NCBI GenBank assembly: GCA_030672415.1
Contig: DAOVGL010000024.1
Location: 1 to 43,576 of the forward strand
Direction: 5' to 3'
Length of the DNA: 43,576 nucleotides
Origin: Candidatus Bathyarchaeota archaeon
Lineage (GTDB): Archaea > Thermoproteota > Bathyarchaeia > Bathyarchaeales > Bathyarchaeaceae
This document shows positions 2,403 through 39,501 of the stretch, piece after piece. Each line of letters begins with the position of its first letter. Positions within the stretch are counted from its first letter, which is position 1. The notes beneath the pieces are model-generated. The model was not told where the DNA came from and ran no database searches. It saw only the letters and a program-made list of their open reading frames with translations. A program made the position numbers and the translations under genes.

Positions 2403-3815
2403 TTAAACTGTGCTTCTCCATCTAGTTCCATCTGCTGTGTCTTCCAAGGTGATTCCCAGATCCCTTAACCTTAACCTGATCTTGTCGGACATTTGCCAAT
2501 CTTTGGTTTCTCTGCACTCTTGCCTTAATTCAATAAGCAAATCTACCAAGTCGCCTACGATTCCCAAGTCGACCTTTCTCTCTTCCTTTTGAAGTATGTT
2601 GAATATACCACCTAACTCTCTGAAAGCATTCACGACTTTTTCAAGCAAGTTCGCGTTTATTGTTTCGTGGCTGTCGACAAACTTGTTTACTTCGTTAGCC
2701 AAGTCGAATAATGCTGTAAGAGCGTAAGGGGAGTTGAAGTCGTCGTCCATCGCTTTTACAAACTTATCGCGGCATCGCAGTATCTTCTTCTCTAACTCCT
2801 CATTCTTTTCGATTTCCGGTCTAGACGCAAGTTTCCGGACGTTACTTAAGGCGTTACGGAGAGTTTGAAGACTTCGCTCCGCCTGCCCCAAACTTGCCTC
2901 ACTGAAATCAATGATGCTTCTATAGTGCGCAGAAGCAAAGAAGAACCTCAGAACTTCGGGGTCATGCCTTTTCAAGGCGTCTCGAACTGTGACAAAATTG
3001 CCCAAAGACTTCGACATTTTCTTCCCGTCAACCTTGAGAACTCCCGTATGCACCCAATATTTCACAAGCGGTTTTCTCCCTGTTGCAGCTTCGGCTTGGG
3101 CGATCTCAGCTTCATGATGGGGAAATATGAGCTCAACTGCGCCTCCGTGGATATCGTATTGCGGTCCGAAATAGTGCGTTGTGATCGCCGTGTCTTCTAT
3201 GTGCCAGCCTGGTCTCCCTCTCCCCCAAGGCGAGTCCCAGCCCAACTCCTCTGGCCCTCGCTTCTTCCATAAGGCAAAGTCGGGGGCGCTTTTCTTCGTT
3301 GGATCGGGTTCTATCCTGTGTTTCCTGAGTTCCGAAGGGTTTTGGTGAGAGAGGACGCCGAGGTCCTTAAACTTGGTGATGTCATAGTAAACGCCTGTTT
3401 CCGTCTCGTACGCGTATCCCTTGTCGATGAGGGTCTTCACTTGGTCGATGATCTCTGGGATGTGCTCTGATGCTCTGGCGAATAGGTTCATGCTTCGAAT
3501 GTCGAGCGTAGCCATGTCTTCGTAAAAATACTTTTCATATTCCTGCGCTAATTCAAGCGGCTCAGTTCCGATGTTTTCTGCTCTGTTTATGATCTTGTCG
3601 TCTACGTCTGTGATGTTCATGACATAAAATAAACTGTACCCCTTGTACCTGAGATAACGTGCGATAATGTCGTAGGATACATAAGTCCTTGCGTGTCCTA
3701 GGTGAGAGAGGTCGTAGGTTGTTGGACCGCACACGAACATGTTCACTCTGTTTCCACGTATCGGTTTGAAAACCGCTCTTTTTCTGCTCAAAGTATTGTA
3801 AATCCTTAAGACCAT
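2403..3815 (-). CDS. cysS: cysteine--tRNA ligase
   Basis: 470 aa. Class I aaRS HIGH motif (SHLGHARTY) and KMSKS motif (KKMSKSLGN). N-terminus and length are typical of CysRS. A GAGGTG Shine-Dalgarno lies 6 nt upstream of the ATG. Confidence 0.95.
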   Translation of the reverse strand: MVLRIYNTLSRKRAVFKPIRGNRVNMFVCGPTTYDLSHLGHARTYVSYDIIARYLRYKGYSLFYVMNITDVDDKIINRAENIGTEPLELAQEYEKYFYEDMATLDIRSMNLFARASEHIPEIIDQVKTLIDKGYAYETETGVYYDITKFKDLGVLSHQNPSELRKHRIEPDPTKKSAPDFALWKKRGPEELGWDSPWGRGRPGWHIEDTAITTHYFGPQYDIHGGAVELIFPHHEAEIAQAEAATGRKPLVKYWVHTGVLKVDGKKMSKSLGNFVTVRDALKRHDPEVLRFFFASAHYRSIIDFSEASLGQAERSLQTLRNALSNVRKLASRPEIEKNEELEKKILRCRDKFVKAMDDDFNSPYALTALFDLANEVNKFVDSHETINANLLEKVVNAFRELGGIFNILQKEERKVDLGIVGDLVDLLIELRQECRETKDWQMSDKIRLRLRDLGITLEDTADGTRWRSTV

Positions 3816-3830
3816 TTTGGCACCTCTTAG

Positions 3831-3904
3831 AGCCTAGGAGGGGATTTGAACCCCTATGAAACCGCTCTGCAGGCGGTTACCTTACCGGACTCGGTCACCT
3901 AGGC
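3831..3904 (-). tRNA. tRNA-Cys (anticodon GCA), 74 nt, no encoded CCA, no intron
   Basis: Reverse complement is GCCTAGGTGACCGAGTCCGGTAAGGTAACCGCCTGCAGAGCGGTTTCATAGGGGTTCAAATCCCCTCCTAGGCT. It folds by hand into a cloverleaf. Acceptor stem GCCTAGG/CCTAGGC. Anticodon stem ACCGC/GCGGT with loop CTGCAGA (anticodon GCA). T arm AGGGG-TTCAAAT-CCCCT. Discriminator is U73, the Cys identity base. Confidence 0.9.
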
Positions 3905-4135
3905 ACTGGGCTATCCTTATATTTCATCACCTAGTTTGCTCTTTGAGGCTCACTTAAATTTTACTTTGTCCATCATTTAGGCTTGCGGTTGTTGCATTAA
4001 ACTTTAGAAAGGTGTTTATTTTCCATTCATAACCGTCTACGGATCATTTATTGAAAGAACACCTAAATAATGCGAATGCATATTCTCGTTAACAAAATGT
4101 GTATCTAAAAACACGCATGTTTTTGTCAAAAACCC

Positions 4136-4143: not shown

Positions 4144-4165
4144 TGTGGTCTATATCTTAATATTT

Positions 4166-5653
4166 ATGTTAAAGCCTTTAAAAGAAGCCTGCGGCGTCTT
4201 CGGAGCTCAAAATTTCGAACACAAACCAGTGTTTCCACACATTTACTGGGGATTAAGAGCACAGAACCACCGCGGTCACCAGTCGCATGGCTTCCTCACG
4301 TTTCACAATAATTTTCATGTACATAGAGACTTAGACTTAGTTCCGAAAATAAAAAAAGAGGAAATTCAAGGATGGCTTAACCGGTTGCCAGGTTATGTTG
4401 GTATAGGAAGCATACGATACACAACTTCCGGTGGAACCGACGAACAATCGTTGGTAAAGGGTGCTCAACCCATATTAGCGCAGTCAGAAAAAAGGGGAGT
4501 TGGGATATCGTTTAATGGTAACATTGTTAACAATTTTGGGTTAAAGAGAGAACTTGAGAAACGATTTCCAAGTTTTTCTTGTGAATGTGACGCAGAAGTG
4601 ATTTGTAGAAAACTTCTCATGGAACTAGTGGAAAACGATGATTTAGCTTCGTCGGTTAGAACGTGCATGAAGGAACTAGAAGGCGCCTTCTCCATAGCAG
4701 GAGTAACTCAAAACGGGGAACTCTTCGCCTTCAAAGACCCTCATGGAATAAGACCGCTCTGTTGCGGATGCAGCGAAGACCGCAAGACATACGCTGTATC
4801 CTCAGAAACTGTTGGTTTAGACATCAACGGCTTTGAACAGTGTTTCGAAATAAATCCTGGAGAACTCGTGATCGCGTCAAAGGATGGTTTCGTGCGAAAT
4901 CAACTCGTTAGAGGCGAGAAAAAAGCGTTCTGCTGCTTTGAATTTGCGTATTTTTCTAGACCAGACTCAACTATTGGAAACAAACATGTTTATGAAATAA
5001 GAGAAGATTTTGGAAGAAATCTTGGAAGAGAGTATTCTGAAATCGCAGAAAAAGCAGACATAATTATGTCAATACCAGAAACTGGCAATGACGCTGCGTA
5101 TGGGCTTCATGAAGAAACTGGCGTGAGGTGGGAGAGAGCTTCAAGAAGGCATAGATACGTGACTGAACGAGCGTTCATTCTGTTGTCACGTGAACGATTC
5201 ACAACAATCGACAGAAAAATCAACATCCTTGACCGCAGGATTAGTGGAAAAACCATTGCGGTGGTTGAGGACAGCATAGTAAGAGGCGACACTACAAAGG
5301 TGATTATAGAAAAACTGCGCAAAAAAGGAGCAAAGAAGGTTCATGTGTTCATTACGTTTCCAAGAATAACAAGTCCCTGCTTTTACGGAATTGACATGGC
5401 AACCTACAACGAGCTGATAGGGTCCAGATATGGTGCTGAAGAAATAGCTGAGAGAATAGGTGCAGACACCGTTAACTATCAGTCAATTGATGGTCTCGTT
5501 AGAGCCACCGGCATGAAGAAAGACGAATTGTGTTTAGGATGCGTCACCGGAAAGTATCCCACTCCCTTGGCTCAAAAACTGGCAGACGAGATGAAGGAAA
5601 AATTTGATAGAGGATTCAAAGAAACTGGGAGAATATACGAAATTATGGCTTAG
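4166..5653 (+). CDS. purF: amidophosphoribosyltransferase (glutamine PRPP amidotransferase)
   Basis: Short propeptide then the Ntn nucleophile Cys (MLKPLKEA-CGVFG). PRTase loop VVEDSIVRGDTT. Cys residues in positions typical of the 4Fe-4S type (CCFEFAYF, SPCFYGID, CLGCVTGKYP). Confidence 0.95.
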   Translation: MLKPLKEACGVFGAQNFEHKPVFPHIYWGLRAQNHRGHQSHGFLTFHNNFHVHRDLDLVPKIKKEEIQGWLNRLPGYVGIGSIRYTTSGGTDEQSLVKGAQPILAQSEKRGVGISFNGNIVNNFGLKRELEKRFPSFSCECDAEVICRKLLMELVENDDLASSVRTCMKELEGAFSIAGVTQNGELFAFKDPHGIRPLCCGCSEDRKTYAVSSETVGLDINGFEQCFEINPGELVIASKDGFVRNQLVRGEKKAFCCFEFAYFSRPDSTIGNKHVYEIREDFGRNLGREYSEIAEKADIIMSIPETGNDAAYGLHEETGVRWERASRRHRYVTERAFILLSRERFTTIDRKINILDRRISGKTIAVVEDSIVRGDTTKVIIEKLRKKGAKKVHVFITFPRITSPCFYGIDMATYNELIGSRYGAEEIAERIGADTVNYQSIDGLVRATGMKKDELCLGCVTGKYPTPLAQKLADEMKEKFDRGFKETGRIYEIMA

Positions 5654-5665
5654 GCCTATGTTTTA

Positions 5666-7093
5666 ATGGTGTTCATAATGGACCGGGTAGGCATTTTGGT
5701 TGTCTGCTATGGTTCAAGAGGAGTCGCCATAGTGGACTCTTTCAGCCGTAGTCAAAATTACGCCACCGAAATCTATGTTATAGACAAGCAAAGGAATCCC
5801 TACAACGTGAAAAAGGCGAAGAAACACGTTGTTATTCCCGATTTTGATGTGGAAAAGATTTGTAAGTTTGCCAAGAAACATGAAAGAATGATTGATTTTG
5901 GAATAGTTGGTCCTGAAAAACCGATAATCAACGGTGTCAGAGATGTTGTTGAAAGAGAAACCGAGATACCAATGATCTGCCCAACCAGAGAATACGCTAT
6001 TGAGGGAAGTAAAGTTGCACAAAGACGCCTGTTTCAGAGGGTTGTACCCGAAGCAAATCCAAGTTTTAGAGTGTTTGACCCAAAAGATTACAGCACCCTA
6101 AGTAAAGTGAAGAGAAACCTCAACGTGTGGCTAGACGAACTTAACAACAAGGTTGCCATAAAACCTGACCGACCTGCCGCGGGAAAAGGCGTCGGCGTCT
6201 GGGGCGACCACTTCAACACTCGAGAACAGCTACTAGAACATTTTTTATCCAACTACGAATATGGCGCAGTGATAGTGGAAAAAAAGGTTGATGGTGAAGA
6301 ATCCAGTTTCCAAGCGTTTTGCGACGGAAAACACTTAGCGCCGTTGCCAGAAACACGCGACTACAAGAGAGCCTTCGATGAGGATAAAGGACCTAACACG
6401 GGCGGAATGGGCTCCTACAAAGATGTGAGCGACTGGTTACCCTTCATGACACCAGCTGACAAAGAGAAAGAGATCCAAATCGTAAACAAGATTTTCAAAA
6501 AGTTAAAGGGAAAAGGCAGCAACCCCGGATTGCGGGGTGTTCCATTTTACGAGGCCTTTATACACACAGGAAGAGGACCAAAAATCTTGGAAAACAACAG
6601 TAGACCCGGCGACCCGGAGATACAGAATTTGTTACCTATATTGAAGGACGATTTTGTGGACGTATGCTTCAGAATACTTGATGGAAACTTGAGGCGGGTC
6701 CGATTTGAAAAAAGAGCAACCGTCGTAACTTACATGGCGCCGCCAAACTACGGCGGGTTCAAGAACGTCTTCCCTGAACGTGTAAATTCAAGCGAGATTG
6801 ATAAGCCAGTGGATTTAAGCGGAGCCTATGGTTTGACTAAAAAATATGAAGAGAGAGTCAGAATTTACCCGGGCTCAATGGAACTGAGAGATGATGGACA
6901 AACCTATGCCCTCGACTCTAGAACATTGTGCGCTGTTGGCATCGGAGAGAACATTGAAAACGCTAGGGAAAATTCGTTAGATGGTCTTAGGGCGGTTAAA
7001 GGTGGAGCATTGTGGTTCAGAGCTGACATTGCCTCGAGAGACCACATAACAAAAAGCATGGAACACATGAAGAGGCTGAGGAGCCAGTGGTGA
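5666..7093 (+). CDS. purD: phosphoribosylamine--glycine ligase
   Basis: ATP-grasp protein with IKPDRPAAGKGV, PNTGGMGSY and ENNSRPGDPE motifs. It follows purF after 12 nt. The start could be ATG 5666 or ATG 5678. Confidence 0.9.
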   Translation: MVFIMDRVGILVVCYGSRGVAIVDSFSRSQNYATEIYVIDKQRNPYNVKKAKKHVVIPDFDVEKICKFAKKHERMIDFGIVGPEKPIINGVRDVVERETEIPMICPTREYAIEGSKVAQRRLFQRVVPEANPSFRVFDPKDYSTLSKVKRNLNVWLDELNNKVAIKPDRPAAGKGVGVWGDHFNTREQLLEHFLSNYEYGAVIVEKKVDGEESSFQAFCDGKHLAPLPETRDYKRAFDEDKGPNTGGMGSYKDVSDWLPFMTPADKEKEIQIVNKIFKKLKGKGSNPGLRGVPFYEAFIHTGRGPKILENNSRPGDPEIQNLLPILKDDFVDVCFRILDGNLRRVRFEKRATVVTYMAPPNYGGFKNVFPERVNSSEIDKPVDLSGAYGLTKKYEERVRIYPGSMELRDDGQTYALDSRTLCAVGIGENIENARENSLDGLRAVKGGALWFRADIASRDHITKSMEHMKRLRSQW

Positions 7094-8193
7094 GTCCAAA
7101 AGCATCCCAACAGAGGAGGCTGTTTATTTCCGATTGTGAAGGCCCAATATCAAAAAATGACAACGCTTACGAATTGAGCGAACACTTCATTCCAAAAGGA
7201 GACTCATTTTTCGCCTTAGTTAGCAGGTATGACGACGTTCAAGCTGACGTTGTTAAGAGACCAGAATATAAGGCTGGAGACACTTTGCGGCTGATACTGC
7301 CCTTTCTAAAAGCGTACGGAGTAACCAACGAAAAAATAAAAAAAGTCTCTAAGGATCGTATTTTGTTGGTTCCCGGCGCTAAAGACACGCTTCATTTTGT
7401 CAATAACCTTATGCCTTCTTTCATTGTAAGCACCAGCTATGAACAGTACATACACGCATTATGTAACTTGGTAGAGTTTCCATGCGAAAATGTTTATTGC
7501 ACTGCATTGGACCTAGACAGGTATCAAATCAGCAAGAAAGAAGTTGAACGGTTGAGACAGCTAAGAGAAGAAATAACCGCCTTGAATATGATAGAGATTC
7601 CCAAAGGCGCAGTCTCAATCAACGACTTTTCTGAAAGAAACAAAAAAACAATCAGAAGACTAGACGATATATTCTGGGAAGAAATCACTGAGATGGAATC
7701 TGGCAAGATGTTGAAAGATGTTAATCCTGTGGGGGGATTTGAAAAAGCACATGCCATTGAAGATATAGTAGAAAAGACGGATAGTCGCCTCTCAGACGTG
7801 ATGTATGTGGGAGACAGCATCACAGATGTTCAGTCGTTTCAGTTAGTGAAACAGAACGGTGGGCTAACGGTTTCCTTCAACGGCAACCGCTACGCTGTAC
7901 GTGAAGCTGAAGTCGCCGTGCTTTCCAAAAACACAATCGTAACATCGATTCTAGCGGATGCCTTCAGCAAATTTGGCAAAAGTCACGTTGTTAAGTTGGT
8001 TGAAGAATGGAGTTATTCCGCGTTAAAACGCTATCGCGTCACCTCTGCACTACGAAACCGCATAGTTGAATTGTATCCCGAAACTCTTCCTCAAGTCGAG
8101 ATGATAACTTCTGAAAACAAGGAGAGGCTGATGGAGGAAAGCAGTGCTTTCAGGAAGACAGTTCGAGGAGAAGCTATAGGAAGGTTAGGATAA
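7087..8193 (+). CDS. HAD-superfamily-like protein with large cap (resembles proteins annotated EhaR in methanogens; function unknown)
   Basis: 368 aa. HAD-like motif I variant FISDCEGP (D-x-E instead of DxD), motif II IVSTS and motif IV VGDSITD. The GTG start overlaps the purD stop by 7 nt. The EhaR resemblance is from memory only. Confidence 0.6.
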   Translation: MVSPKASQQRRLFISDCEGPISKNDNAYELSEHFIPKGDSFFALVSRYDDVQADVVKRPEYKAGDTLRLILPFLKAYGVTNEKIKKVSKDRILLVPGAKDTLHFVNNLMPSFIVSTSYEQYIHALCNLVEFPCENVYCTALDLDRYQISKKEVERLRQLREEITALNMIEIPKGAVSINDFSERNKKTIRRLDDIFWEEITEMESGKMLKDVNPVGGFEKAHAIEDIVEKTDSRLSDVMYVGDSITDVQSFQLVKQNGGLTVSFNGNRYAVREAEVAVLSKNTIVTSILADAFSKFGKSHVVKLVEEWSYSALKRYRVTSALRNRIVELYPETLPQVEMITSENKERLMEESSAFRKTVRGEAIGRLG

Positions 8194-8213
8194 ATTAAAA
8201 TCGGGATGACTTT

Positions 8214-9119
8214 ATGGTCGTCAAGATCGAAGACACCTACGCAGAAGCCTTCGAAGGCTTGTACTCTCGAGTTATAATAACTGCAGACGACGAGGAAGTT
8301 TTGAGAAAAGCCGCTGAAGACGCCACAGCCAACCCATCAATTGTCATCGGCAGAATCGAAGGAAGCATAGAGAAATGGCTAAGCGAAGACGACACGCCGA
8401 ATGAACGCAAAGGCGCAATCATACAGTTTTGGGGAGGCATAGATGAAAGAAAACCCCTTAACGACTCAATCAAGAAGTTTGAAATTGAAATGTCCTATTC
8501 CATACGCCAAAACATACTTGTCAAACCCTTCACCTCCGTCTTCGACGCCCTTCCCAACCCAGATGGAAAAATTGATATTATGAAACATATAGGGCATTGT
8601 GGAGACGGATTTGAGTGGGAAGAGAAACTATACGGACGTAACATGATCAACGTCCCTCTAATGGTCTCCAATTTCCATATAGAGCGCTATCTAGGCTATG
8701 GACGAGGGGTAATGGGCGGCAACTTCTGGTACATGTGCAAAACCAAGCAAGCAGTGATGAAAGCTGGAAAGAAAGCGCTAAAAGCCATAAGCCAAATAGA
8801 AGGCGTCATCACACCATTCGACATCTGCTCAGCAGGTTCAAAACCTGAAACTAATTTTCCATGGATAGGACCCACCACAAACCATCCCTACTGTCCAACG
8901 CTTAAAAAGAAGCTGGGAAACCAATCGAAAGTTCCAGAAGGTGTCAAGTATATTCCAGAAATCGTGATCAACGGCGTATCCATCCAAGCGGTTAAGGAAG
9001 CGATGAGAGCTGGCATCCACGCAGCCATGAATGTGAATGAGGTGTCAAAAATCTCTGCTGGAAATTACGGAGGAAAACTGGGAAAATACCGGATATATCT
9101 GCGAGAGTTGTTTCCATGA
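8214..9119 (+). CDS. formylmethanofuran--tetrahydromethanopterin N-formyltransferase family protein (Ftr-like)
   Basis: 301 aa, Ftr-like over its full length: N-terminal [56 protein letters not shown], and C-terminal [22 protein letters not shown]. Confidence 0.85.
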
Positions 9120-10018
9120 GTCTGGATGTTGTTTGTTTCGGCGCCTTAAACATGGACAAACTCTACCGAGTGAACAGAATAGCTAGGGAAGAGGAAGAAA
9201 GCGTTATCAGGAGCTTCAAAGAGTCTCCGGGAGGTTCTGCCGCAAACACAGCGGTTGGCTTGGCGAGACTGGGAATAAAAACTGGTTACATAGGAAAAGT
9301 TTCCAATGATCGTGAAGGCAAACTTCTACTAGACAACTTCAAAACGGAAGGCGTTGATACACGCGGAGTAATAGTTTCAAAAGAGGATAGAAGCGGAGTT
9401 GTCATCGGCTTTGTTGATGGAAAAGGTGAGAGAGCGCTCTACGTGGACCCAGGCGTAAACGATACAATCGAACTTAAAGAAATAAATTTAGAATATGCTG
9501 GATCAGCCAAAATTCTACATTTAACGTCGTTTGCTGGAGAGAAACCGTTCAAAGTCCAAAAAACACTTGTAGAAACACTTTCAAACATCAAAGTAAGTCT
9601 TGACCCAGGAGAACTGTACGCGAGAAAAGGACTCGCAACGTTAAAACCCGTAATAAAGAGAAGTTTTGTTATGTTTCTAAATGAAAATGAGATAAAACTG
9701 CTCACAGGAGAGAACTACAAGGAAGGCTCAAAGACTCTAGCGAACGAAGGCATAAGCATAGTTGCGGCTAAGCTGGGCAAGAGAGGATGCTACGTTACGG
9801 ATGGCAAAGAAACTCATCTGGTTAAGCCGTACAAGGTGAAGGTTGTGGACACCACAGGCGCTGGCGACGCGTTCTGCGCCGGCTTCCTATATGGTCTGAT
9901 TAAAAACAAAGATTTACATGAATGTGGAAGATTGGGAAGTTTTGTTGCGTCTCGCTGCATAAGAGAGGCAGGAGCCAGAGAAGGGCTGCCCAAACTTTCA
10001 GATTTGGAGGAAATGTAA
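9116..10018 (+). CDS. PfkB/ribokinase-family sugar or nucleoside kinase
   Basis: 300 aa. N-terminal [15 protein letters not shown] and C-terminal anion-hole motif [20 protein letters not shown] overlap with the Ftr-like stop. Confidence 0.85.
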
Positions 10019-10020
10019 CG

Positions 10021-10839
10021 CTAAAATTTCTTTGTCAGGTATTCAACCACAGATTCAAAGATTAACCGTCCATCACCATATGTGAGAGTTCTCTCTCTCC
10101 TCGTCCAGTCAGGCAACTGCCAACCGTAATACGATCTTTCAGGATGAGGCATCAACCCGAAAACCGTTCCAGCCGGGTTGCAGATACCAGCGATGTCATG
10201 AAAGGCACCATTCGGATTTATGGGATATTGTCCGTTTGCGGGTTCACCGTTTTCGGCGCAGTATCTAAAGACAAGCTGATCGTTACCATACAACTTTTCT
10301 AAGTAACGGTTCTCATTCTCTTTTGGAAGGACAAATCTTCCCTCAGCATGAGCTACTGGTATTCTTAACACCTTTCCCTTCGCAACTTTCCGGGTGAAAA
10401 TGCATTTGCCAGAGTTTTCGTGTCGGACGTAAACCCAGCTACAATGATACCCTATTGGAGTGTTGGTGGCTAAAGCCGCTTCTGGATACTCAGCGATTCC
10501 TTCAAAGCCCGGCAACAAACCGATTTCCACCAGCACTTGAAACCCGTTACAAATCCCCAAAATAGGTCTCTCTTCTTCAACAAACTCTTTTAAATCGTCG
10601 CCAATCTTAGCTAAAGCTTCTTTAGCCCAGATGGCTCCAGCTCTCACGTAATCGCCGTGAGAAAAACCGCCGGGAAATATGAGGGCACTGTAGTCAAGGA
10701 GGTTTCTCTTTTTGACTATTTCGTTTGAATGAACAACCTCGGCTTTTACTCCTAAATCGTCGAATGCCCTTTTGGTTTCTGCGTCGCAGTTGGTTCCAGC
10801 AACCCTCATTATGCAAACGTTGATGTCTTCTTTTTTCAT
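10021..10839 (-). CDS. purQ: phosphoribosylformylglycinamidine synthase, glutaminase subunit
   Basis: Class I amidotransferase triad context: GICNGFQVL, HAEGRF, MPHPER. ATG 10839 forms an ATGA overlap with the purL stop, so I prefer it over the track's upstream ATG at 10866. Confidence 0.9.
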   Translation of the reverse strand: MKKEDINVCIMRVAGTNCDAETKRAFDDLGVKAEVVHSNEIVKKRNLLDYSALIFPGGFSHGDYVRAGAIWAKEALAKIGDDLKEFVEEERPILGICNGFQVLVEIGLLPGFEGIAEYPEAALATNTPIGYHCSWVYVRHENSGKCIFTRKVAKGKVLRIPVAHAEGRFVLPKENENRYLEKLYGNDQLVFRYCAENGEPANGQYPINPNGAFHDIAGICNPAGTVFGLMPHPERSYYGWQLPDWTRRERTLTYGDGRLIFESVVEYLTKKF

Positions 10840-13241
10840 TTTTGTCCTCCAAAGGTGCTTTTCCAAGCGTCTCTTAATCTGCCTAAACTGGCGTTAACTA
10901 CTCGTTTACCATTTAGACCAAATACAGAAAGACGCTTATTCTTCTCAACTCTACCTACTGCTGAACAAACATTCCTTTCCATCAATGCTTCGAACTGTTC
11001 TCTACGTTTCTCTGGAACTTCCATCAAGAACCTGCTGTTGGATTCCGAGAAGATAACATAGTCATTTCTTTTCATATTCCTAGCTCTCGGAACACTTCCC
11101 AGATTCAGTTGTATTCCATATCCCCCGCTGAAAGCCATTTCAGCAGCTGCCACCGCTAAGCCTCCTTCAGAAAGGTCATGGCATGACGTTACATATCCAG
11201 AATCGATTGCTTCAACAACCGCGTTTATGGTTCGTTTCGCCTGCGCTGTCCTAACCTTAGGAACAGCTTTCCCTAGAAAACCTCTCAACCCATAATATTC
11301 GGAGCCACCCAGCTCATGGTATGTTTGACCAACCATGTAAATCAGATTTCCCGGACTTTTCACATCCGCTGAAACCGTTTTTCTTATGTCCGGGATAATC
11401 CCAATCGCTGTGATTAGGAGAGTTGGAGTAACTGGATTTGAAGCATCAGGTCCAATGCGCAACTCGTTGTAGAGACTGTCTTTGCCAGAGATGAACGGAG
11501 TTTCAAATGCCTTCGCGAAATCGTAGCAGGCTTGGCAGGCTCTAACCAGTGATCCAGTTCTATCTGGTTTTTCTGGGCTGCCCCATGTGAAATTGTCTAG
11601 TAACGCGATTCTTCTTCCTCCAACTGAAATGTTGTTTCTGATTGCTTCATCCACTGCGGAGGCAGCCATCCAGTATGGATCAATTTTTCCATAGTTAGGG
11701 TTCATTCCACAAGAGATGACGATTCCCTTCCAAGAGTTTGATAATGGTTTTATAACAGCCGCGTCACTCAGTCCACCGTATCTTCCTTGCAGCGGTTTTA
11801 ACACGGTGTTCCCCTTAACTTCATGATCATAGGTTCTTATCACTGACTCTTTGCTTGCAACGTTTGGGGAAGACAGAATTTTCAACAGGTCATGGGTTAA
11901 GTCGTTTGGTTCAGCAAAACTTGGTTCGATAAGATTTGGTTTTTTCCATCTTGCGACTCTTCTAGCTTTCGGTGGATTATACAGGAAATGCAAGTCTAGT
12001 TCCGCAACTGTTTGTCCACGGTAATAGGCTTGAAGCATTTTGTTGCCGGTAAATTTTCCAACAGGAGTTGCTTCTATGTCCTCACTTTCAAAGATGTCTA
12101 AGACTTTCTGGAGGTTTTTCTCTTTAACAGATAACAGCATTCTTTCCTGTGACTCGGAAACGTAAATTTCCCACGGACTCATTCCAAGATGTTTGAGAGC
12201 AACCTTTTCAAGTTCAACTTGAACCCCACAATTCGATCTGTGAGCCATCTCACCTGTGGCGCAGGATAACCCTCCGCCGCCCAGGTCGGTTATGGCAGAG
12301 CCCAGTTTTCTGTCTCGTATTTTAATGATGGCGCGCTTGAGTTTTTCTTCTTCTATAGGATTTGCGATTTGAACTGCTGATCTAGAAACCTCCTCCGACT
12401 CCTTTGTCAGTTCGGCTGATGCGAAGGTTACTCCGTGAATTCCATCTCGGCCGGTTCTTCCACCCGCTAAAACAGCTATGTCTCCGGGCATTGTGTTTCT
12501 TGTAAACTTGTTCGTTGGAAGAACTCCTATGCAGCCGCAGTAAACCACAACGTTGCCCACATAGCTTTCATCAAAATATATTGCACCGTTAACGGTAGGT
12601 ATGCCCATGTTGTTTCCATAGTGGCCGATGCCAGCGACAACTCCTTTGAAAAGGTAATTTGGATGTTTTGTTCCAAGAGGAAGCTTTTCATAGTCATAAT
12701 TTAAGGGTCCGAAACAGAGAACATCTGTGCAGGCTATGGGGTCAGCCCAAACCCCCAGTATATCTCTAATAACTCCGCCTGTGCCAGTGGCAGCGCCTCC
12801 AAAAGGTTCTATGGCTGATGGATGGTTATGGGTCTCCACCTTCGCGGCGATTGCGTAACCGTTTTCAAAGTCAACTATGCCTGCGTTGTCCTCGAACACG
12901 GAGAGGCACCATGGCAAGTTGAGTTCTCGCGTAACCTTTGCTATGTATTCTTTGAACATGTTGGTTACGAGTAATTTTCCCTTCGCCGTCACAATGTCGC
13001 CCTTGAAGGTTTTGTGGCAGCAGTGTTCTGACCAGGTTTGGCCAATGGTTTGGAGTTCAACGTCGGTTGGGTTTCTTCCTTTTTTTGAAAAGTGTTGTTT
13101 AACGTGTTTCATTTCCTTGAGGCTTAGACCAACTCCTAGTTCACTGCTGATTTGAAGTAGTTCTTTTTCATCCGCATCTAACACGTTTATTTCAGAAAGC
13201 TCGAAGTCCAAGTTTCTCTTAATGTAAAGACGAGAAGTCAT
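10836..13241 (-). CDS. purL: phosphoribosylformylglycinamidine synthase subunit PurL (small PurL)
   Basis: About 800 aa. The N-terminus has PTDVELQTIGQTWSEHCCHKTFKG, followed by duplicated AIR-synthase-like domains. ATG 13241 forms an ATGA overlap with the purS stop. Confidence 0.95.
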   Translation of the reverse strand: MTSRLYIKRNLDFELSEINVLDADEKELLQISSELGVGLSLKEMKHVKQHFSKKGRNPTDVELQTIGQTWSEHCCHKTFKGDIVTAKGKLLVTNMFKEYIAKVTRELNLPWCLSVFEDNAGIVDFENGYAIAAKVETHNHPSAIEPFGGAATGTGGVIRDILGVWADPIACTDVLCFGPLNYDYEKLPLGTKHPNYLFKGVVAGIGHYGNNMGIPTVNGAIYFDESYVGNVVVYCGCIGVLPTNKFTRNTMPGDIAVLAGGRTGRDGIHGVTFASAELTKESEEVSRSAVQIANPIEEEKLKRAIIKIRDRKLGSAITDLGGGGLSCATGEMAHRSNCGVQVELEKVALKHLGMSPWEIYVSESQERMLLSVKEKNLQKVLDIFESEDIEATPVGKFTGNKMLQAYYRGQTVAELDLHFLYNPPKARRVARWKKPNLIEPSFAEPNDLTHDLLKILSSPNVASKESVIRTYDHEVKGNTVLKPLQGRYGGLSDAAVIKPLSNSWKGIVISCGMNPNYGKIDPYWMAASAVDEAIRNNISVGGRRIALLDNFTWGSPEKPDRTGSLVRACQACYDFAKAFETPFISGKDSLYNELRIGPDASNPVTPTLLITAIGIIPDIRKTVSADVKSPGNLIYMVGQTYHELGGSEYYGLRGFLGKAVPKVRTAQAKRTINAVVEAIDSGYVTSCHDLSEGGLAVAAAEMAFSGGYGIQLNLGSVPRARNMKRNDYVIFSESNSRFLMEVPEKRREQFEALMERNVCSAVGRVEKNKRLSVFGLNGKRVVNASLGRLRDAWKSTFGGQK

Positions 13242-13489
13242 TTCACTTCCTCTATGTTGAAACGATAGTTGTCTTTGGTTGGATTTGCCAGTAGTCTCCG
13301 GCACATTTCATCTGCATGTCTCTGGACCTCTTTTAGAGATTTTGCGTGAAGGAACACCTCATAAACCTTACTTACCTTAACTGTTTCCACTGGGTACCTT
13401 AACCCTTTCAGAGATTTTGCGGTAGTTTCTCCTTCAGGATCAGAATGACCTGGTTTGAGAGAAACCTCGATTTTAACTCTGTATCTCAT
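13238..13489 (-). CDS. purS: phosphoribosylformylglycinamidine synthase subunit PurS
   Basis: 83 aa: VKIEVSLKPGHSDPEGETTAKSLKGLRY...CRRLLANPTKDNY. This is the typical PurS pattern, at the head of purS-purL-purQ. Confidence 0.9.
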   Translation of the reverse strand: MRYRVKIEVSLKPGHSDPEGETTAKSLKGLRYPVETVKVSKVYEVFLHAKSLKEVQRHADEMCRRLLANPTKDNYRFNIEEVK

Positions 13490-13558: not shown

Positions 13559-14641
13559 TCATAGCTCGATTTTCTTTTCTTTATACAAAGCAACAATTTT
13601 TCTTGAATCAGTCACTCTCCCGATCTGCTCAGTCTCCACAGCGTTCTTTTCAAAATTATCAATAAGATCATCTCCATCCGCTCTATCAGCAATCACCGCA
13701 AAGCCCCATCCCATGTTGAAGGTTTTCAGCATCTCCTCATCCCTAATTACGCCGCCCATCTCTAAGGCAGTTTCCTGAATCAGTTGAAATAGGGGTTGCG
13801 GCTTAAAGTTGTTGAACTCAAACCCGATTCCCTTAGAAAACTTCATCAACCTATCAAATTTCAAGTAGGCGTCACCAGTGATGTGAACTAACCCCTTAAC
13901 CTCATGATTTTTTGCAATATTCAACACTGGCTTAACGTAGATTCTCGTTGGCTTCAGAACTTCATAAATGAGTTCTCTTTCAAACCCGTCAGGAACATCG
14001 TGCAGTTCATACTTGCCATCCCACTGTTTGAAAAGAACTTTTCGTGCTAGTGATATTCCGTTGCTGTGGATGCCAGAACTTCGTAAGCCTATAACTACGT
14101 CTCCTGGTTCAATGTTGTTGCCGAAGACTGTGTCTTCTTTGAACAATTCTCCTATACAAGCGAAAATCATGTCGAACCCTTTTCCTTCCACTGTTCCTCG
14201 GATAATTTCGGCTACATCTCCTATTTCTCCGCTTGGCACAAAACATTCAGCTCCAGTTGCGCCCTTCACTATGCCTTTCATCCATTCGCTTACCAAATGA
14301 GGATCCGACATCTGAGCGTGGATGTTGTCCACAACTGCGATGGGTCTTGCACCGGATCTGATTACATCATTTACTGCCATCGCAACTCCGTCAATGCCGA
14401 TAGTGTCGTATTTGTTTGCTAGTTGTGCCAGAAGAACTTTGGTTCCGATGCCTTCTATAACAAAATCGAAGTATCGATTGCCAACTGGGAAAATGTTGCC
14501 GTAGGGAAGTTTAATGACTTTTCCATATCTGCTGAATCTATAGGTTTGTTTAAGAGCCGTCAAGGCGGCTTTGGACTTCGCTCTTAATTCTCTGTCTACT
14601 CCCGCCTCCGCGTACGTAAACTCTCTTGACATAGGTTTCAC
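13559..14641 (-). CDS. purM: phosphoribosylformylglycinamidine cyclo-ligase (AIR synthetase)
   Basis: 360 aa with PurM-type N- and C-domains (EGIGTKVLLA, DGVAMAVNDV, SSGIHSNG). Pur operon context. Confidence 0.9.
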   Translation of the reverse strand: MKPMSREFTYAEAGVDRELRAKSKAALTALKQTYRFSRYGKVIKLPYGNIFPVGNRYFDFVIEGIGTKVLLAQLANKYDTIGIDGVAMAVNDVIRSGARPIAVVDNIHAQMSDPHLVSEWMKGIVKGATGAECFVPSGEIGDVAEIIRGTVEGKGFDMIFACIGELFKEDTVFGNNIEPGDVVIGLRSSGIHSNGISLARKVLFKQWDGKYELHDVPDGFERELIYEVLKPTRIYVKPVLNIAKNHEVKGLVHITGDAYLKFDRLMKFSKGIGFEFNNFKPQPLFQLIQETALEMGGVIRDEEMLKTFNMGWGFAVIADRADGDDLIDNFEKNAVETEQIGRVTDSRKIVALYKEKKIEL

Positions 14642-14652
14642 TTGTTACGTAA

Positions 14653-14823
14653 CTATCTTCTGAAGCCTCTTGCTCTTTGCGGAGTTGTGTAGATTATGCT
14701 TCTGAAACCATAGTCTCTCTGCTCTACCCAGGCGTCAAGAGCAGAGTGGCCTCCCAAGTTGAGTCCAACTGGTTCTCGGTAGGATTTAGCGATTTCTTGC
14801 ATTTCTTCTCTTTCTATGACCAA
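14653..14823 (-). CDS. unannotated 56-aa ORF between purC and purM (unknown function)
   Basis: Below the track's size cut-off. TTG start 5-6 nt downstream of a strong GAGGTGA Shine-Dalgarno. Sequence (M)VIEREEMQEIAKSYREPVGLNLGGHSALDAWVEQRDYGFRSIIYTTPQRARGFRR*. It fills an otherwise unexplained 209-nt gap in a tightly packed operon. Confidence 0.4.
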   Translation of the reverse strand: MVIEREEMQEIAKSYREPVGLNLGGHSALDAWVEQRDYGFRSIIYTTPQRARGFRR

Positions 14824-14850: not shown

Positions 14851-15702
14851 TCAGAACTTTCTACCAGTTAATCTTTCATATGCTTGGATGTATCGTTGAC
14901 TTGTTTTATTTATGATCTTCTTAGGTAAGATGGGTTCAGTTAATTTTGTTCCCGGCGCTGGCTGATTTTTATCCCAGCCCTTCACTTTTTCAAGATAGTC
15001 TCTAACAATCTGTTTATCAAAGCTTTCCTGTATTTTGTTGGGCTGATACTTGCTTGCGTCCCAAAACCTGCAACCATCAGGTGTTTCCGCTTCATCAGCT
15101 AAAATTATTTTTCCCTCTTCATCTATTCCAAATTCCAATTTGAAGTCGGCGAGAATGAACCCAGCTTTCTCCGCATCCTTTAACATCAACTCGTTTAATT
15201 GCAGTGTAATTTTTTTAATTTGGTCAATTTCAGGAGTTCCTAACCATCCTCTAGATATTACCTCTTGCTCAGTTAGCGGTTTATCTTTAGTCTCAAACTT
15301 GGTGGTAAACTCAATTAACGGTTCACTTAGCTTCGCAGCTAACACGCGGTCTGTTCCTTCTGGAAGTTGAACTTCACCGCGTTGGTATCGTTTCCAGTAC
15401 GAACCGTAAACGTAGTTTCTCCCTATCACCTCGATTGGTATGAGAAATAACTTCTTAGCTAGCATCTCGTTGGGAGCAGGAACATCTATCATGTGAGTTT
15501 CAATACCATTGTCTTCGCAGTTCGCAAAACAGTGGGCAGCGAGACGGCAAAGAACTTGACCTTTTTGCGGAATCTTGTCAGCCAACATTACATCATGGGA
15601 AGACAGCCGGTCTGTAAAAACGAACAGAAGCTCTTCTTTACTCACGTCATAGACATCCTTAACTTTGCCGCTTCGCAAAAACCGTTTTTCTATTTTGCTC
15701 AT
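14851..15702 (-). CDS. purC: phosphoribosylaminoimidazole-succinocarboxamide synthase
   Basis: 283 aa, long-form SAICAR synthetase: GKVKDVYDV, LLFVFTDRLSSHDV, LADFKLEFG. Confidence 0.95.
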   Translation of the reverse strand: MSKIEKRFLRSGKVKDVYDVSKEELLFVFTDRLSSHDVMLADKIPQKGQVLCRLAAHCFANCEDNGIETHMIDVPAPNEMLAKKLFLIPIEVIGRNYVYGSYWKRYQRGEVQLPEGTDRVLAAKLSEPLIEFTTKFETKDKPLTEQEVISRGWLGTPEIDQIKKITLQLNELMLKDAEKAGFILADFKLEFGIDEEGKIILADEAETPDGCRFWDASKYQPNKIQESFDKQIVRDYLEKVKGWDKNQPAPGTKLTEPILPKKIINKTSQRYIQAYERLTGRKF

Positions 15703-15715
15703 TTTTTTGCCTCTA

Positions 15716-16222
15716 TCAGTCTTTTAAGTTAGAAATTTTCTTTCCTCTCACTTTTTTGTCAGCGGTTTTAACTTCTAGCTTCTTCTCCAGCTGGAACTTA
15801 CCAACTTTTTCGGATAGCGCCGGGTTTTCCATGCCTAAAATTTTTGCCGCCGCTAACGCGGCGTTTTCCGGGTTAAGTACAACTAATGGAGCGACTCCAC
15901 TCGGGGTTCTTAGGGAGGAGTAAATGTCGGCGCCTCCAAACTTTTCTGAGTATGGGGGGCAAGCTATAACTGGATGTTTTGTGTTGGCGTCCACTAGTCC
16001 GGAAAGCGCGTTAGACCTGCCAGCAACTGTAATGTAAACGATGTTGTTTCCAGACTTTTCATATTCCTCTAATAGATTCAGTAAATCTCTGGGTGTTTTG
16101 TGCGCCGAGGCTATTCTATACTCGTAGTCAACGCCAAATTTTTCTAGGACATGACCTATGGAAGCTGCAAAGTTGAGGTCACGTTTGGAACCCATTATGA
16201 TGACGACTTGTTGCTTTTGCAT
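15716..16222 (-). CDS. purE: phosphoribosylaminoimidazole carboxylase catalytic subunit / N5-CAIR mutase family (PurE)
   Basis: 168 aa: VVIIMGSKRDL, IASAHKTP, VAGRSNALSG. No purK in the window. Confidence 0.95.
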   Translation of the reverse strand: MQKQQVVIIMGSKRDLNFAASIGHVLEKFGVDYEYRIASAHKTPRDLLNLLEEYEKSGNNIVYITVAGRSNALSGLVDANTKHPVIACPPYSEKFGGADIYSSLRTPSGVAPLVVLNPENAALAAAKILGMENPALSEKVGKFQLEKKLEVKTADKKVRGKKISNLKD

Positions 16223-17501: not shown

Positions 17502-18116
17502 TCATAAAGTTCTTTTGAGATTTTCGATGCTGAACCATGTGTTGGTGCAACCGTTCTTGGCGAGAGGAACCGACTGACCTCGCAGCTCACTGTTTGCAAT
17601 ATGTTCTCCTCCCATCTTCAGTTCTTGGCTACATGCAACCCCTACAATCCCCTTGTATGAGTGGTTTTTCAGTATTTGGGGAACACAGGAGCCGCCAGCG
17701 AGCACATAGACATCATATCCTCTCGTTTTCCCCAGCTCTGTTGCCTGATTAACCAGACAGTCTGGGGAACATTGGTTGCAGTGGTAGGATGGACCATTTG
17801 GGTCGAAATGTGCTTGACATCGTTTGTCCATGTATTTCCTTGCGCAGTGGGGCAGGAATAGCACTCTCCTTTTGGTTTCCAGAAATTTTTTCCTCTCTGA
17901 GAGGTTTCGGGCGTGTATGTCCACGAGGTCTTCGACGAGCGTGATGGCGTCGGAGACGTTTAAGCCTGTGAGTTCGTGGATTCTGAACTTTTCAGCCAGA
18001 CTTCTCGCTCGCTCTCCAATTCTTCTGTGCACGTTCTTTTCACGTGCAACTCTAGCGAGTTCTTTGAAGAAAGACTTGGACATTTTCGTTAGGTCGAAGC
18101 TGAATCCGTATGGCAT
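17502..18116 (-). CDS. DUF116-family Cys-rich protein
   Basis: 204 aa with the conserved block VLFLPHCARKYMDKRCQAHFDPNGPSYHCNQCSPDCLV...GGSC...GVAC, which I recognise as the DUF116 pattern. From memory, not searched. Confidence 0.55.
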   Translation of the reverse strand: MPYGFSFDLTKMSKSFFKELARVAREKNVHRRIGERARSLAEKFRIHELTGLNVSDAITLVEDLVDIHARNLSERKKFLETKRRVLFLPHCARKYMDKRCQAHFDPNGPSYHCNQCSPDCLVNQATELGKTRGYDVYVLAGGSCVPQILKNHSYKGIVGVACSQELKMGGEHIANSELRGQSVPLAKNGCTNTWFSIENLKRTL

Positions 18117-39430: not shown

Positions 39431-39501
39431 AATGAGCCTAATTATTGAAAAGCAGTCTACATAAGAGGTTGAGAACAAAAGTCTTGTTTTGGAGGGAAAG
39501 G

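Follow-up and report, generated by a model that had tools for sequence, protein, structure and literature searches.

A gene set encoding a HAD-like protein, a paralogue of formyltransferase (Ftr2) and a PfkB-family kinase, orthologous to EhaR, EhaS and EhaT of the Methanobacteriales, is coupled to purD in the DNA analysed here, and the recurrence of this arrangement across dozens of Bathyarchaeia species means that it is not due to chance. Our preferred reading, to which we give slightly better than even chances, is that the EhaR/S/T orthologues constitute a purine module acting at step 3, in which Ftr2 would be a methanofuran (MFR)-dependent GAR formyltransferase and the HAD-like protein and the kinase an accessory pair. 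On this reading the triad would be neither a set of hydrogenase subunits nor a part of the Wood-Ljungdahl pathway. If this is true, the module would account for the purine formylation enzyme that several archaeal groups have seemed to lack since 2011.

The window (the whole stretch of DNA that was analysed, 43.6 kb) contains the triad within the following locus.

4145-5653, + strand: purF, amidophosphoribosyltransferase, purine step 1, opening the + strand unit (TIGR01134, E 6.9e-97; GATase_6/7 domains)
5666-7093, + strand: purD, GAR synthetase, step 2, its stop codon overlapping the start of the HAD-like gene (GARS_N/A/C domains; TIGR00877, E 2.1e-75, 254 bits, slightly below the cut-off of 288)
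7087-8193, + strand: HAD-like protein of the EhaR / AF1437 family, 368 aa
8214-9119, + strand: Ftr2 / EhaS-type protein of the Ftr family, 301 aa
9116-10018, + strand: PfkB-family kinase of the EhaT type, 300 aa, a frequent third member of the module
10021-10866, - strand: purQ, FGAM synthase glutaminase subunit, step 4 (NF002252, 314 bits, above the cut-off of 298)
10836-13304, - strand: purL, FGAM synthase, step 4 (TIGR01736, 697 bits, above 526)
13238-13489, - strand: purS, FGAM synthase small subunit (PF02700, E 2.9e-20; TIGR00302, 73 bits, above 39)
13559-14641, - strand: purM, AIR synthetase, step 5 (TIGR00878, 253.5 bits, above 236)
14653-14823, - strand: purP relic, a 56-codon remnant of formate-dependent AICAR formyltransferase, between purM and purC
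14851-15702, - strand: purC, SAICAR synthetase, step 7 (TIGR00081, 252 bits, above 190)
15716-16222, - strand: purE, AIR carboxylase / N5-CAIR mutase, step 6 (PF00731 AIRC, E 2.6e-41)

Open reading frames and the sequence itself bear out the coordinates and junctions of the preliminary description. The purD and HAD-like genes overlap by 7 nt (GTGGTGA), a 20-nt gap separates the HAD-like gene from the Ftr gene, and the latter joins the PfkB gene in an ATGA overlap. The + strand unit converges on purQ-purL-purS-purM-purC-purE, with the stop codons of PfkB (10016-10018) and purQ (10021-10023) lying 2 nt apart on opposite strands.

We searched the window by tblastn and found neither purN nor purT, and no intact purP or purH. 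Both formyl-transfer steps had been described as lacking an enzyme here, and for step 3 this stands within the 43.6 kb of the window. For step 9 it is true of the window, which holds no intact gene, but the step is not generally unaccounted for: purP adjoins purM in sister Bathyarchaeia, and three related loci (L002, L032 and L038) carry an intact purP at the position of the relic. Because relatives carry purP and the window holds its remnant, an AICAR role for the module is unsupported. The relic, a detail that the preliminary description missed, comprises the first ~51 codons of purP, then 4 others and a stop, with 11 nt between its end and the start codon of purM; it is 78% identical to the PurP of L002 over residues 1-51 (tblastn, E 3e-22).

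Assignment of the three proteins to the HAD-like, Ftr and PfkB families holds in domain searches, in a PDB match and in their motifs. The Ftr-family protein contains FTR and FTR_C domains (E 5e-59 and 2.8e-42) and is 63-66% identical to EhaS of the Methanobacteriales (63% for M. formicicum), as against 39-41% to characterised Ftr1. It belongs to a distinct paralogue clade, Ftr2, which is separated from every characterised Ftr in 100/100 bootstraps. It scores 346 bits on the broad Ftr subfamily model, above the cut-off of 297, and fails the equivalog model TIGR03119 (238 bits, cut-off 292.6), on which true Ftr1 enzymes score 476-482. Ftr2 shares with Ftr (PDB 1FTR, 1M5H, 1M5S) and FhcD (6S6Y) the two lobes of the FTR/FTR_C fold, a C-terminal AGNxGGKLG motif and the catalytic glutamate, which is Glu245 in M. 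kandleri. Unlike the other two, Ftr2 has lost the PG of the FPGGIV loop, and its gene is linked to purD instead of mch/mtd; its alignment also reveals an insertion of 7-9 aa and changes at 49 of the 94 positions that are invariant in Ftr1 and FhcD. A second ftr is present in Bathyarchaeum tardum, which encodes one Ftr beside mch/mtd (WGM88604.1) and another linked to pur genes (WGM89568.1); the pur-linked Ftr is therefore not the Wood-Ljungdahl enzyme. A complete Bathy-6 genome has two Ftr genes as well, in different orthologue groups.

Comparative evidence suggests Ftr2 as a candidate methanofuran-dependent GAR formyltransferase. The protein would keep the Ftr fold and catalytic glutamate around a rebuilt substrate pocket and would move the formyl group from formyl-methanofuran, or less likely from N5-formyl-H4MPT, onto the free amino group of GAR, thereby replacing PurN and PurT in archaea without folate. 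Those enzymes make the product proposed for Ftr2 (FGAR) at the same pathway and operon position, but they are of unrelated fold and use 10-formyl-tetrahydrofolate or formate plus ATP as donors instead of the proposed methanofuran-bound formyl group.

The domain search signal of the HAD-like protein is weak (E 9e-6) but is firmed up by a match to PDB 1Y8A (E 6.5e-29) and by the motifs DxEGP, STSY, K and GDSITD, which are invariant. Its AlphaFold model (pLDDT 93.6) retrieves 1Y8A in Foldseek (TM 0.79/0.92) and then phosphoserine phosphatases (PSP), and catalytic activity as a PSP-type HAD phospho-enzyme is probable. It is 44% identical over its full length to EhaR of M. formicicum, and its JGI family is named 'energy-converting hydrogenase A subunit R'. 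The 1Y8A protein, AF1437 of Archaeoglobus fulgidus, is a structural-genomics HAD protein of the same family with the same DxEGP / STSY / GDSIxD motifs; its gene is solitary, whereas that of the window lies between purD and Ftr2. The kinase (PfkB domain, E 2.2e-60; 52% identity to M. formicicum EhaT) reaches no NCBIfam equivalog cut-off (169 against 299.65 for ribokinase; 152 and 143 for ribose-1-phosphate kinases). Orthologues with 37-53% identity adjoin the HAD-like gene in Thermoplasmata, Altiarchaeia, Chloroflexi and one Thermococci metagenome-assembled genome (MAG), and in Geoglobus the pair is called as overlapping genes. The kinase is dispensable in some relatives, being absent from some purD-HAD-Ftr loci, in one of which (L001) a Fae gene takes its place.

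Genomic neighborhoods strongly support the proposed link to GAR formylation, through gene order, through replacement by PurN-like proteins or co-occurrence with PurT, and through gene fusions. The HAD-like gene comes immediately after purD in 46 of 80 related loci, and Ftr comes next in 41; most of the Bathyarchaeia loci also have purF upstream of purD. The linkage extends over ~50 Bathyarchaeia species and Ca. Mnemosynella, and the order purD-HAD-Ftr(-PfkB) answers the question, raised from the window alone, whether pur linkage exists elsewhere. The HAD and Ftr2 phylogenies agree with each other, hence the module has been inherited as one unit. The formyltransferase slot is occupied by Ftr2 in 41 loci and by a PurN-like protein of ~270 aa in 8 (Thermoplasmata, Methanomassiliicoccales, Chloroflexi, Thermodesulfobacteriota and Thermotogae), and no locus has both. 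The Thermococci MAG has an operon purT-purF-purD-HAD-PfkB-purL-purQ-purM-purC-purE-purP with a genuine PurT (394.9 bits, cut-off 339); the position equivalent to that of Ftr2, next to HAD-PfkB, is filled in other lineages by PurN-like proteins and PurT. The HAD-like domain is moreover fused to a PurN-like domain in one protein (P0187; best NCBIfam match PurN, E 3e-15) and to PurT-like ATP-grasp domains in two (P0198 and P0221; best match PurT, E 4e-9 and 6e-9).

The idea that the triad is a functional module is supported as regards the GAR step, but the three genes do not make up a single methanofuran-specific unit that cannot be divided. What stays constant is the HAD-like protein, in most cases together with PfkB, and the pair also accompanies PurN-like proteins and genuine PurT, including in bacteria without methanofuran. 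The HAD-like protein appears to be the constant partner of candidate GAR-formylating catalysts and may work with any of them (Ftr2, PurN-like or PurT), most likely by binding or processing the 5-phosphoribosyl intermediate passed on by PurD. It would form a kinase/phospho-enzyme couple with PfkB, and the earlier suggestion that the two handle a phosphorylated intermediate is plausible.

The same three gene types do stand at the tail of the eha operon, as the preliminary description stated. In M. formicicum EhaE..O and two polyferredoxins are followed by a 341-aa HAD-like protein, Ftr and PfkB; in Methanothermobacter ehaR/S/T share a transcript with ehaA-R (PMC3087415); and EhaR-EhaS-EhaT, the last three eha genes in Methanobacteriales, are orthologous to the window triad in the same order, with the eha-tail and Bathyarchaeia proteins in one clade of both the Ftr and HAD trees. 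In contrast to the eha tail, the window triad comes without hydrogenase or polyferredoxin genes and is translationally coupled to purD. The eha cotranscription, and the eha-tail arrangement in M. formicicum and other MAGs, could mean that these are Eha accessory subunits, maturation factors or general C1 proteins whose adjacency to purD is meaningless. We find this scarcely credible, given that no hydrogenase gene occurs in the window or the ~50 Bathyarchaeia loci, that the HAD-PfkB pair is found in bacteria and Eha-less archaea, that translational coupling to purD is seen in two unrelated archaeal lineages, and that fusions join the HAD-like protein to purine-type formyltransferase domains.

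Ftr2 might instead be an ordinary formyl-MFR:H4MPT formyltransferase for biosynthetic C1 flux, with the other two proteins merely purine-related, either as purine nucleotidase and nucleoside kinase or as a pair leading from ribose-1-phosphate through ribose-1,5-bisphosphate to ribose-5-phosphate. The subfamily score and retained glutamate of Ftr2 fit this, as do the moderate matches of PfkB to ribokinase, ribose-1-phosphate kinases and the MJ0406 nucleoside kinase, a nucleoside phosphorylase gene after the HAD-like gene in one locus (L046), and HAD-PfkB pairs without any formyltransferase in Altiarchaeia and Geoglobus. A precedent for such a pair is the PfkB kinase domain of HldE and the HAD phosphatase GmhB, a couple acting on one sugar phosphate in ADP-heptose synthesis, although neither is related in sequence to the window proteins beyond superfamily level. 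We nevertheless judge the explanation unlikely: it does not account for HAD fusions specifically to PurN-like and PurT-like domains, for the mutually exclusive slot occupancy, or for the remodelling of half the invariant positions, and because N-formyl-H4MPT is not considered a usable purine donor, an extra Ftr isoenzyme beside purD would have no obvious use. It is distinctly unlikely that Ftr2 or its PurN-like counterpart frees formate from a carrier for PurP or PurT while another enzyme performs step 3. Many methanogens have no established formate source for PurP/PurT, which would suit formate supply; also in its favor are the relatives with purP beside purM, the Thermococci operon with PurT and HAD-PfkB and no extra formyltransferase, PurU (which serves PurT in E. 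coli) as second-best match of the PurN-like partners, and FhcD, an Ftr homologue acting within a formate-releasing complex. However, Ftr-family proteins are transferases; hydrolysis in Fhc is due to a separate subunit, FhcA, and these loci contain no FhcA-like gene. The best matches of the fusion partners, PurN and PurT, both bind GAR, and since Methanobacteriales possess just one PurP and lack PurT, step 3 would still be orphaned.

A variant of the preferred reading has the HAD-like protein dephosphorylate GAR, the glycinamide riboside formylated, and PfkB re-phosphorylate the product to FGAR, at the cost of one ATP, as for PurT. This would be wasteful and has no known precedent, and we regard it as highly improbable even though in many lineages a formyltransferase accompanies a phosphatase-like protein and a kinase resembling ribokinase, the HAD catalytic motifs are all invariant and PfkB has ribokinase-type NxD and DTxGAGD motifs; the substrate of the Thermococci PurT is GAR itself, and some purD-HAD-Ftr loci do without PfkB. 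The step-3 reading in general has evidence against it too. The Methanobacteriales triad is cotranscribed with eha and not with pur genes, the HAD-like gene is solitary in M. kandleri, A. fulgidus and Hydrothermarchaeota, some Bathyarchaeia loci have no formyltransferase near purD-HAD, and the PurN-like partners score 56-66 bits against a PurN cut-off of 150, so that GAR is a putative substrate for them too. The HAD and PfkB roles also lack a convincing chemical rationale, as neither canonical PurN nor canonical PurT needs a helper.

The distribution of these genes among archaea can be compared with published surveys. Both purN and purT are missing in Methanobacteriales, Archaeoglobi, M. kandleri and ANME-1 (PMC3261824, PMC9012536), which are the groups reported to have Ftr2, and the HAD-like protein occurs in them as well. 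PurN and Ftr2 are both reported in ANME-2a and ANME-2b, and the anticorrelation between the two is therefore imperfect. Acetate C2 was found to be the source of purine C8 in M. stadtmanae, whereas in M. smithii it was not, and the labelling was called inconsistent (Brown et al.); a donor derived from MFR or H4MPT would reconcile the two results.

The HAD-like, Ftr-family and PfkB genes of the window follow purF and purD on the forward strand:

4145-5653, forward strand: purF, 502 aa
5666-7093, forward strand: purD, 475 aa
7087-8193, forward strand: HAD-like gene, 368 aa
8214-9119, forward strand: Ftr-family gene, 301 aa
9116-10018, forward strand: PfkB gene, 300 aa

The gene coordinates in the preliminary description match the ORF table exactly. 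As read from the sequence, purD and the HAD-like gene overlap by 7 nt at the junction GTGGTGA, a 20-nt gap separates the HAD-like gene from the Ftr gene, and the Ftr/PfkB junction is ATGA. Profile searches confirmed the neighboring genes as purF, purD, purQ, purL, purS, purM, purC and purE, and matched the triad itself to FTR and FTR_C, to PfkB and, with a weak signal, to HAD. Elsewhere the window encodes standard archaeal housekeeping functions (TFB, SMC, a proteasome-exosome cluster and tRNA synthetases), and every protein tested has its nearest homologues among proteins named Bathyarchaeota, in line with a Bathyarchaeia genome. Within the window we found no gene for PurN, PurT or a second Ftr, none of the Wood-Ljungdahl/methanogenesis C1 genes (mch, mtd), and no Eha, NiFe-hydrogenase or polyferredoxin genes. 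The observation that the triad stands here without a hydrogenase partner is therefore borne out; its upstream neighbors are purF and purD.

The convergent stop codons of PfkB and purQ (10016-10023) lie 2 nt apart, too close for a terminator to fit between the two biosynthetic units, both of them highly expressed; similar tail-to-tail packing, overlapping at times, is seen in many Bathyarchaeia loci. Directly downstream of purE, and on the same strand, are genes for an MFS transporter (16298-17446, reverse strand) and a DUF116 protein (17502-18116, reverse strand), which may be co-expressed with the pur genes.

The preliminary description was right to place the same three gene types at the tail of the eha operon. 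The operon of Methanobacterium formicicum runs from EhaE...EhaO through two polyferredoxins and a 341-aa protein lacking Pfam matches to Ftr, PfkB and a further polyferredoxin, and this arrangement is also found in two further MAGs. The HAD-like, Ftr and PfkB proteins of the window are 44%, 63% and 52% identical to the M. formicicum proteins over their full length and in the same R-S-T order, and the JGI label for the HAD-like family is "energy-converting hydrogenase A subunit R". The genes are thus already known as EhaR, EhaS and EhaT. The window shares with the EhaR-S-T module of Methanobacteriales all three orthologues and their order, but not the position at the 3' end of an eha operon. 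In Methanothermobacter EhaS and EhaT are annotated as Ftr and ribokinase and are cotranscribed with ehaA-R, their function being unknown (PMC3087415); no function has been assigned to EhaR, EhaS or EhaT from the first description of the eha operon onward.

The Ftr-family protein carries the domains of the two-lobe FTR/FTR_C fold (PF01913, E 2.8e-42; PF02741, E 5e-59) and aligns over its full length to 1FTR, 1M5H and 1M5S, with 39-41% identity to characterized Ftr enzymes. Against the curated Ftr equivalog model TIGR03119 (cut-off 292.6 bits) it scores 238.1 bits; EhaS scores 210, the pur-linked Ftr of Bathyarchaeum tardum 239 and the Ftr of locus L044 277, all of them under the cut-off, and characterized canonical (Ftr1) enzymes score 476 and 482. 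The window protein passes only the broad subfamily model NF002554 (346 bits against a cut-off of 297). In a neighbor-joining tree it groups with all pur-linked Bathyarchaeia Ftrs, the Methanobacteriales EhaS proteins and the proteins of L044 and L086, a basal uncultured lineage. This clade, termed Ftr2, is split from the enzymes of M. kandleri, A. fulgidus and M. barkeri (1FTR, 1M5H, 1M5S) and from FhcD in 100 of 100 bootstraps, which answers in the affirmative the question of whether the Ftr belongs to a distinct paralogue clade. Methanobacteriales EhaS and EhaR nest within, not outside, Bathyarchaeia diversity in the Ftr and HAD trees, a pattern suggesting that the complete module moved laterally between the two groups. 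The HAD tree mirrors the Ftr2 tree, which indicates that the module is inherited as a unit.

We then compared the Ftr2 pocket with that of the canonical enzymes, a comparison based purely on alignment. Among 94 positions invariant in Ftr1 and FhcD, the Ftr2 clade keeps 45, has switched 14 to another conserved residue and is variable at 35. The invariant P201-G202 of the FPGGIV loop is deleted, and 7-9 residues are inserted. The catalytic glutamate, whose role has been described (Glu245 in M. kandleri, Glu252 in FhcD; PMC6926001), is conserved in no fewer than 90% of Ftr2 proteins, that of the window among them (motif EIVING). The alignments suggest that fold and chemistry are retained in Ftr2 and that the pocket is remodelled.

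The complete genome of B. tardum encodes two Ftr genes: WGM88604.1, which adjoins mch (WGM88600.1) and mtd (WGM88599.1), and WGM89568.1, which by exact look-up is the pur-linked Ftr of its locus L031. Two Ftr genes, belonging to different orthologue groups, are likewise present in a complete Bathy-6 genome. The objection that this Ftr might be the sole copy in a complete Wood-Ljungdahl set fails for the lineage, since a second Ftr lies beside mch and mtd in B. tardum. The window-type Ftr is a distinct paralogue and not the C1-pathway enzyme.

An exhaustive search yielded 650 representatives of the HAD-like family, for which the closest solved structure is AF1437 (1Y8A), a protein of unknown function; nothing of relevance was found in the literature searched for "EhaR" or "AF1437". 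The window protein has the four HAD catalytic motifs (nucleophile Asp, Ser/Thr, Lys and acidic motif IV) on a Rossmann-like core. Among 40 diverse members there is no variation in motif I (DxEGP), in motif IV (GDSITD), at the Lys of motif III or at positions two and four of motif II (STSY), and the other motif II positions are nearly invariant. Motif I has Glu instead of Asp at position +2. The model (pLDDT 93.6) has a PSP-like fold and matches 1Y8A and phosphoserine phosphatases; beyond 1Y8A, a Foldseek search with it recovered just generic PSP-type neighbors and no clue to the substrate. Judged by its motifs and modelled fold, EhaR is most likely an active HAD enzyme. Both DxEGP and GDSITD are lost in a subgroup of the family (representatives P0182, P0196, P0228, P0232, P0240, P0242, P0246, P0248, P0256 and others), which is therefore probably non-catalytic. 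The PfkB protein matches PF00294 (E 2.2e-60) over residues 4-293 and has the NxD and DTxGAGD motifs in its translation. It scores 169.3 bits against the ribokinase equivalog TIGR02152, under the cut-off of 299.65, and all 23 of its 23 NCBIfam matches fall under their cut-offs.

In order to identify the genes that accompany the HAD-like family, we annotated locally 80 loci that carry it, taken from a scan of species-representative genomes. The gene directly upstream is purD in 46 of the 80 loci, and PfkB is present in 49. Ftr2 follows the HAD-like gene in 41 (Bathyarchaeia, Ca. Mnemosynella, Methanobacterium and L044/L086). A gene for a PurN-like protein of ~270 aa, scoring far under the PurN cut-off, is adjacent in eight (Thermoplasmata, Methanomassiliicoccales, Chloroflexi, Thermodesulfobacteriota and Thermotogae), and none of the 80 loci has both partners. 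A MAG of the class Thermococci has the operon purT-purF-purD-HAD-PfkB-purL-purQ-purM-purC-purE-purP, with a genuine PurT (394.9 bits, cut-off 339). In these neighborhoods the HAD-like protein, usually together with PfkB, is what stays constant; the third member varies and is in every case a formyl-transfer catalyst belonging to one of three unrelated folds. Additionally, three of the HAD-like representatives are fusions. In P0187 the HAD-like protein is preceded by a formyltransferase domain of PurN type (PF00551), with PurN as its best NCBIfam match, and in P0198 and P0221 it is preceded by a divergent PurT-like ATP-grasp domain, whose best NCBIfam and PDB matches are PurT and whose motifs are collinear with those of PurT, including "NEISYRPDDAGF" against "EVSPRPHDTGM" in PurT. 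An assignment of the N-terminal part of these long fusions to PurD was considered and rejected in favor of the PurT-like one.

The HAD-like gene is solitary in M. kandleri, A. fulgidus and Hydrothermarchaeota, and we found no informative neighbors of it in the first two. Some Bathyarchaeia loci have purD-HAD without Ftr; no other formyltransferase is encoded downstream of HAD in these loci, which have only pilin-like, PNP, ThuA, GH4 and cupin genes there. A 544-aa gene upstream of HAD-PfkB in Geoglobus, considered as a divergent PurT-like domain, was rejected because it encodes a MutS-like ATPase.

The preliminary description had assigned the triad a possible role in both formyl-transfer steps of purine synthesis. 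It overlooked a purP relic of 56 codons (14653-14823, reverse strand) between purM and purC. The first 51 residues of the relic are 78% identical to the N-terminus of intact PurP, and its stop lies 11 nt before the purM start codon. Three relatives (loci L002, L032 and L038) have full-length purP at the equivalent position, so purP was lost at that site in this genome. A general role of the triad in AICAR formylation is unsupported because the relatives carry purP; step 9 is left open in this particular genome by the relic. The earlier interpretation is thus partly supported and sharpened: the eha-type triad and the distinct Ftr stand, the link to step 3 is strongly backed, and the AICAR half is not supported in general.

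The literature has acknowledged a gap at step 3 (GAR to FGAR) since at least 2011 (PMC3261824; again in 2022, PMC9012536), for Methanobacteriales, Archaeoglobi, Methanopyrus and ANME-1. Brown et al. reported that neither purN nor purT could be found in two Archaeoglobi, four Methanobacteria and M. kandleri, with pathways otherwise intact; a later survey found M. kandleri to be without purT, and Chadwick et al. described the same purN/purT gap in ANME-1. The genomes of A. fulgidus, Geoglobus, M. kandleri and Methanobacterium encode the HAD-like protein. The overlap between gap and module is striking yet imperfect, because ANME-2a and ANME-2b also have PurN. M. stadtmanae is not known to make formyl-MFR from CO2. 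Brown et al. deemed the labelling of purines inconsistent, C8 being derived from acetate C2 in M. stadtmanae and not in M. smithii. If M. stadtmanae indeed makes no formyl-MFR in this way, the two results would agree with a formyl donor that comes from the MFR/H4MPT pool. The B. tardum paper concludes that the organism has "multiple deficiencies in purine biosynthesis" and relies on a partner (PMC10477458). The purF-purD-HAD-Ftr2-PfkB and purQ-purL-purS-purM genes of L031 are intact, so that some of the inferred auxotrophy may stem from missing annotation at step 3.

Gene context, the fusions and the phyletic pattern make the triad a candidate for the conversion of GAR to FGAR. PurN has a Formyl_trans_N fold with an Asn-His-Asp catalytic triad; it is absent from the window triad, none of whose three proteins matches PF00551 (Formyl_trans_N), and any role as a GAR formyltransferase would therefore be by analogy rather than homology. 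PurT, a formate- and ATP-dependent enzyme of the ATP-grasp fold, is likewise absent from the window; elsewhere, PurT and PurT-like domains are partners of the HAD family. [quoted passage not shown] Judging from established physiology, Eha could provide the reduced ferredoxin with which formyl-methanofuran is replenished, as a biosynthetic drain requires, and placement of the triad on the eha operon would fit such a supply.

The chemistry of the HAD/PfkB pair is the weakest part of this proposal. A detour in which the two enzymes dephosphorylate and re-phosphorylate an intermediate is hard to square with the genuine PurT in the Thermococci operon, and the same co-occurrence led us to reject the pair as a replacement for PurT. 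A role of the pair in ribose-phosphate metabolism or nucleoside salvage fits only in part: it agrees with one Bathyarchaeia locus (L046), where a purine/uridine nucleoside phosphorylase gene (3229-4047) follows purD-HAD with a different PfkB nearby and hints at a connection to ribose-1-phosphate, but it does not agree with the fusions of HAD to formyl-transfer domains. Returning to GAR formylation, the most far-reaching version is one that we consider rather unlikely to hold as a whole. According to it, Ftr2/EhaS would constitute a third class of GAR formyltransferase, one with a new mechanism in which formyl-methanofuran, the first intermediate of CO2 reduction, is the direct donor. EhaR and EhaT would be obligatory and widespread components, working with Ftr2, PurN-like or PurT-type catalysts in folate-poor anaerobes in a previously unrecognized manner, and where purP has decayed, as here, Ftr2 might formylate AICAR as well.

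The purine role, the fusions and the three-way exchange of formyltransferases beside an unchanging HAD/PfkB pair all appear to be new to the literature; in the literature searched we found no published link between Ftr2/EhaS and GAR formylation, although a paper in a subscription journal is possible. The locus, the fusions and the in-place replacements join the puzzle of EhaR, EhaS and EhaT to the gap at step 3, providing a concrete, clonable candidate and turning a long-standing gap into a direct experiment. If the proposal is true, it adds a third type of GAR formyltransferase and gives purine synthesis a direct connection with the methanofuran C1 pool, and thereby with the anaplerotic role of Eha. 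In addition, the labels "Ftr" and "Eha subunit R" now carried by these paralogues (at least several hundred sequences) would be corrected, false calls of "purine auxotrophy" would be removed from metabolic reconstructions of Bathyarchaeia such as B. tardum, and an uncharacterized pair of HAD and PfkB enzymes, which some bacteria have as well, would come to light.

Several other genes were observed beside the HAD-like family. In Bathyarchaeota CP070709.1 (locus L001) a formaldehyde-activating enzyme, Fae (10903-11514), occupies the PfkB slot in the order purF-purD-HAD-Ftr2-Fae, which places another H4MPT-linked C1 enzyme within the module. In two Chloroflexi/Dehalococcoidia loci a PHP-domain phosphoesterase is encoded directly upstream of PurN-like-HAD-PfkB (L020, 2526-3185; L021, 5661-6359) and could be a fourth component of the module as it occurs in bacteria. 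A gene for an M24 (Xaa-Pro/creatinase-type) peptidase adjoins the HAD-like gene in two unrelated lineages (L044, 9010-10032; L086, 9261-10277; L021, 4383-5519); the M24 peptidase gene of the window (39445-40755) lies 30 kb from its HAD-like gene. In Methanopyri, an ORF of 172-176 aa without Pfam matches overlaps the start of the solitary HAD-like gene (L003 of M. kandleri, 9493-10023; L007, 7493-8011) and is a possible unrecognized partner of it. Finally, a thermosome (Cpn60/TCP-1) gene adjoins HAD or HAD-PfkB in Hydrothermarchaeota and Thermoplasmata (L012, 6248-7912; L017, 10014-11678; also L011, L013 and L019).
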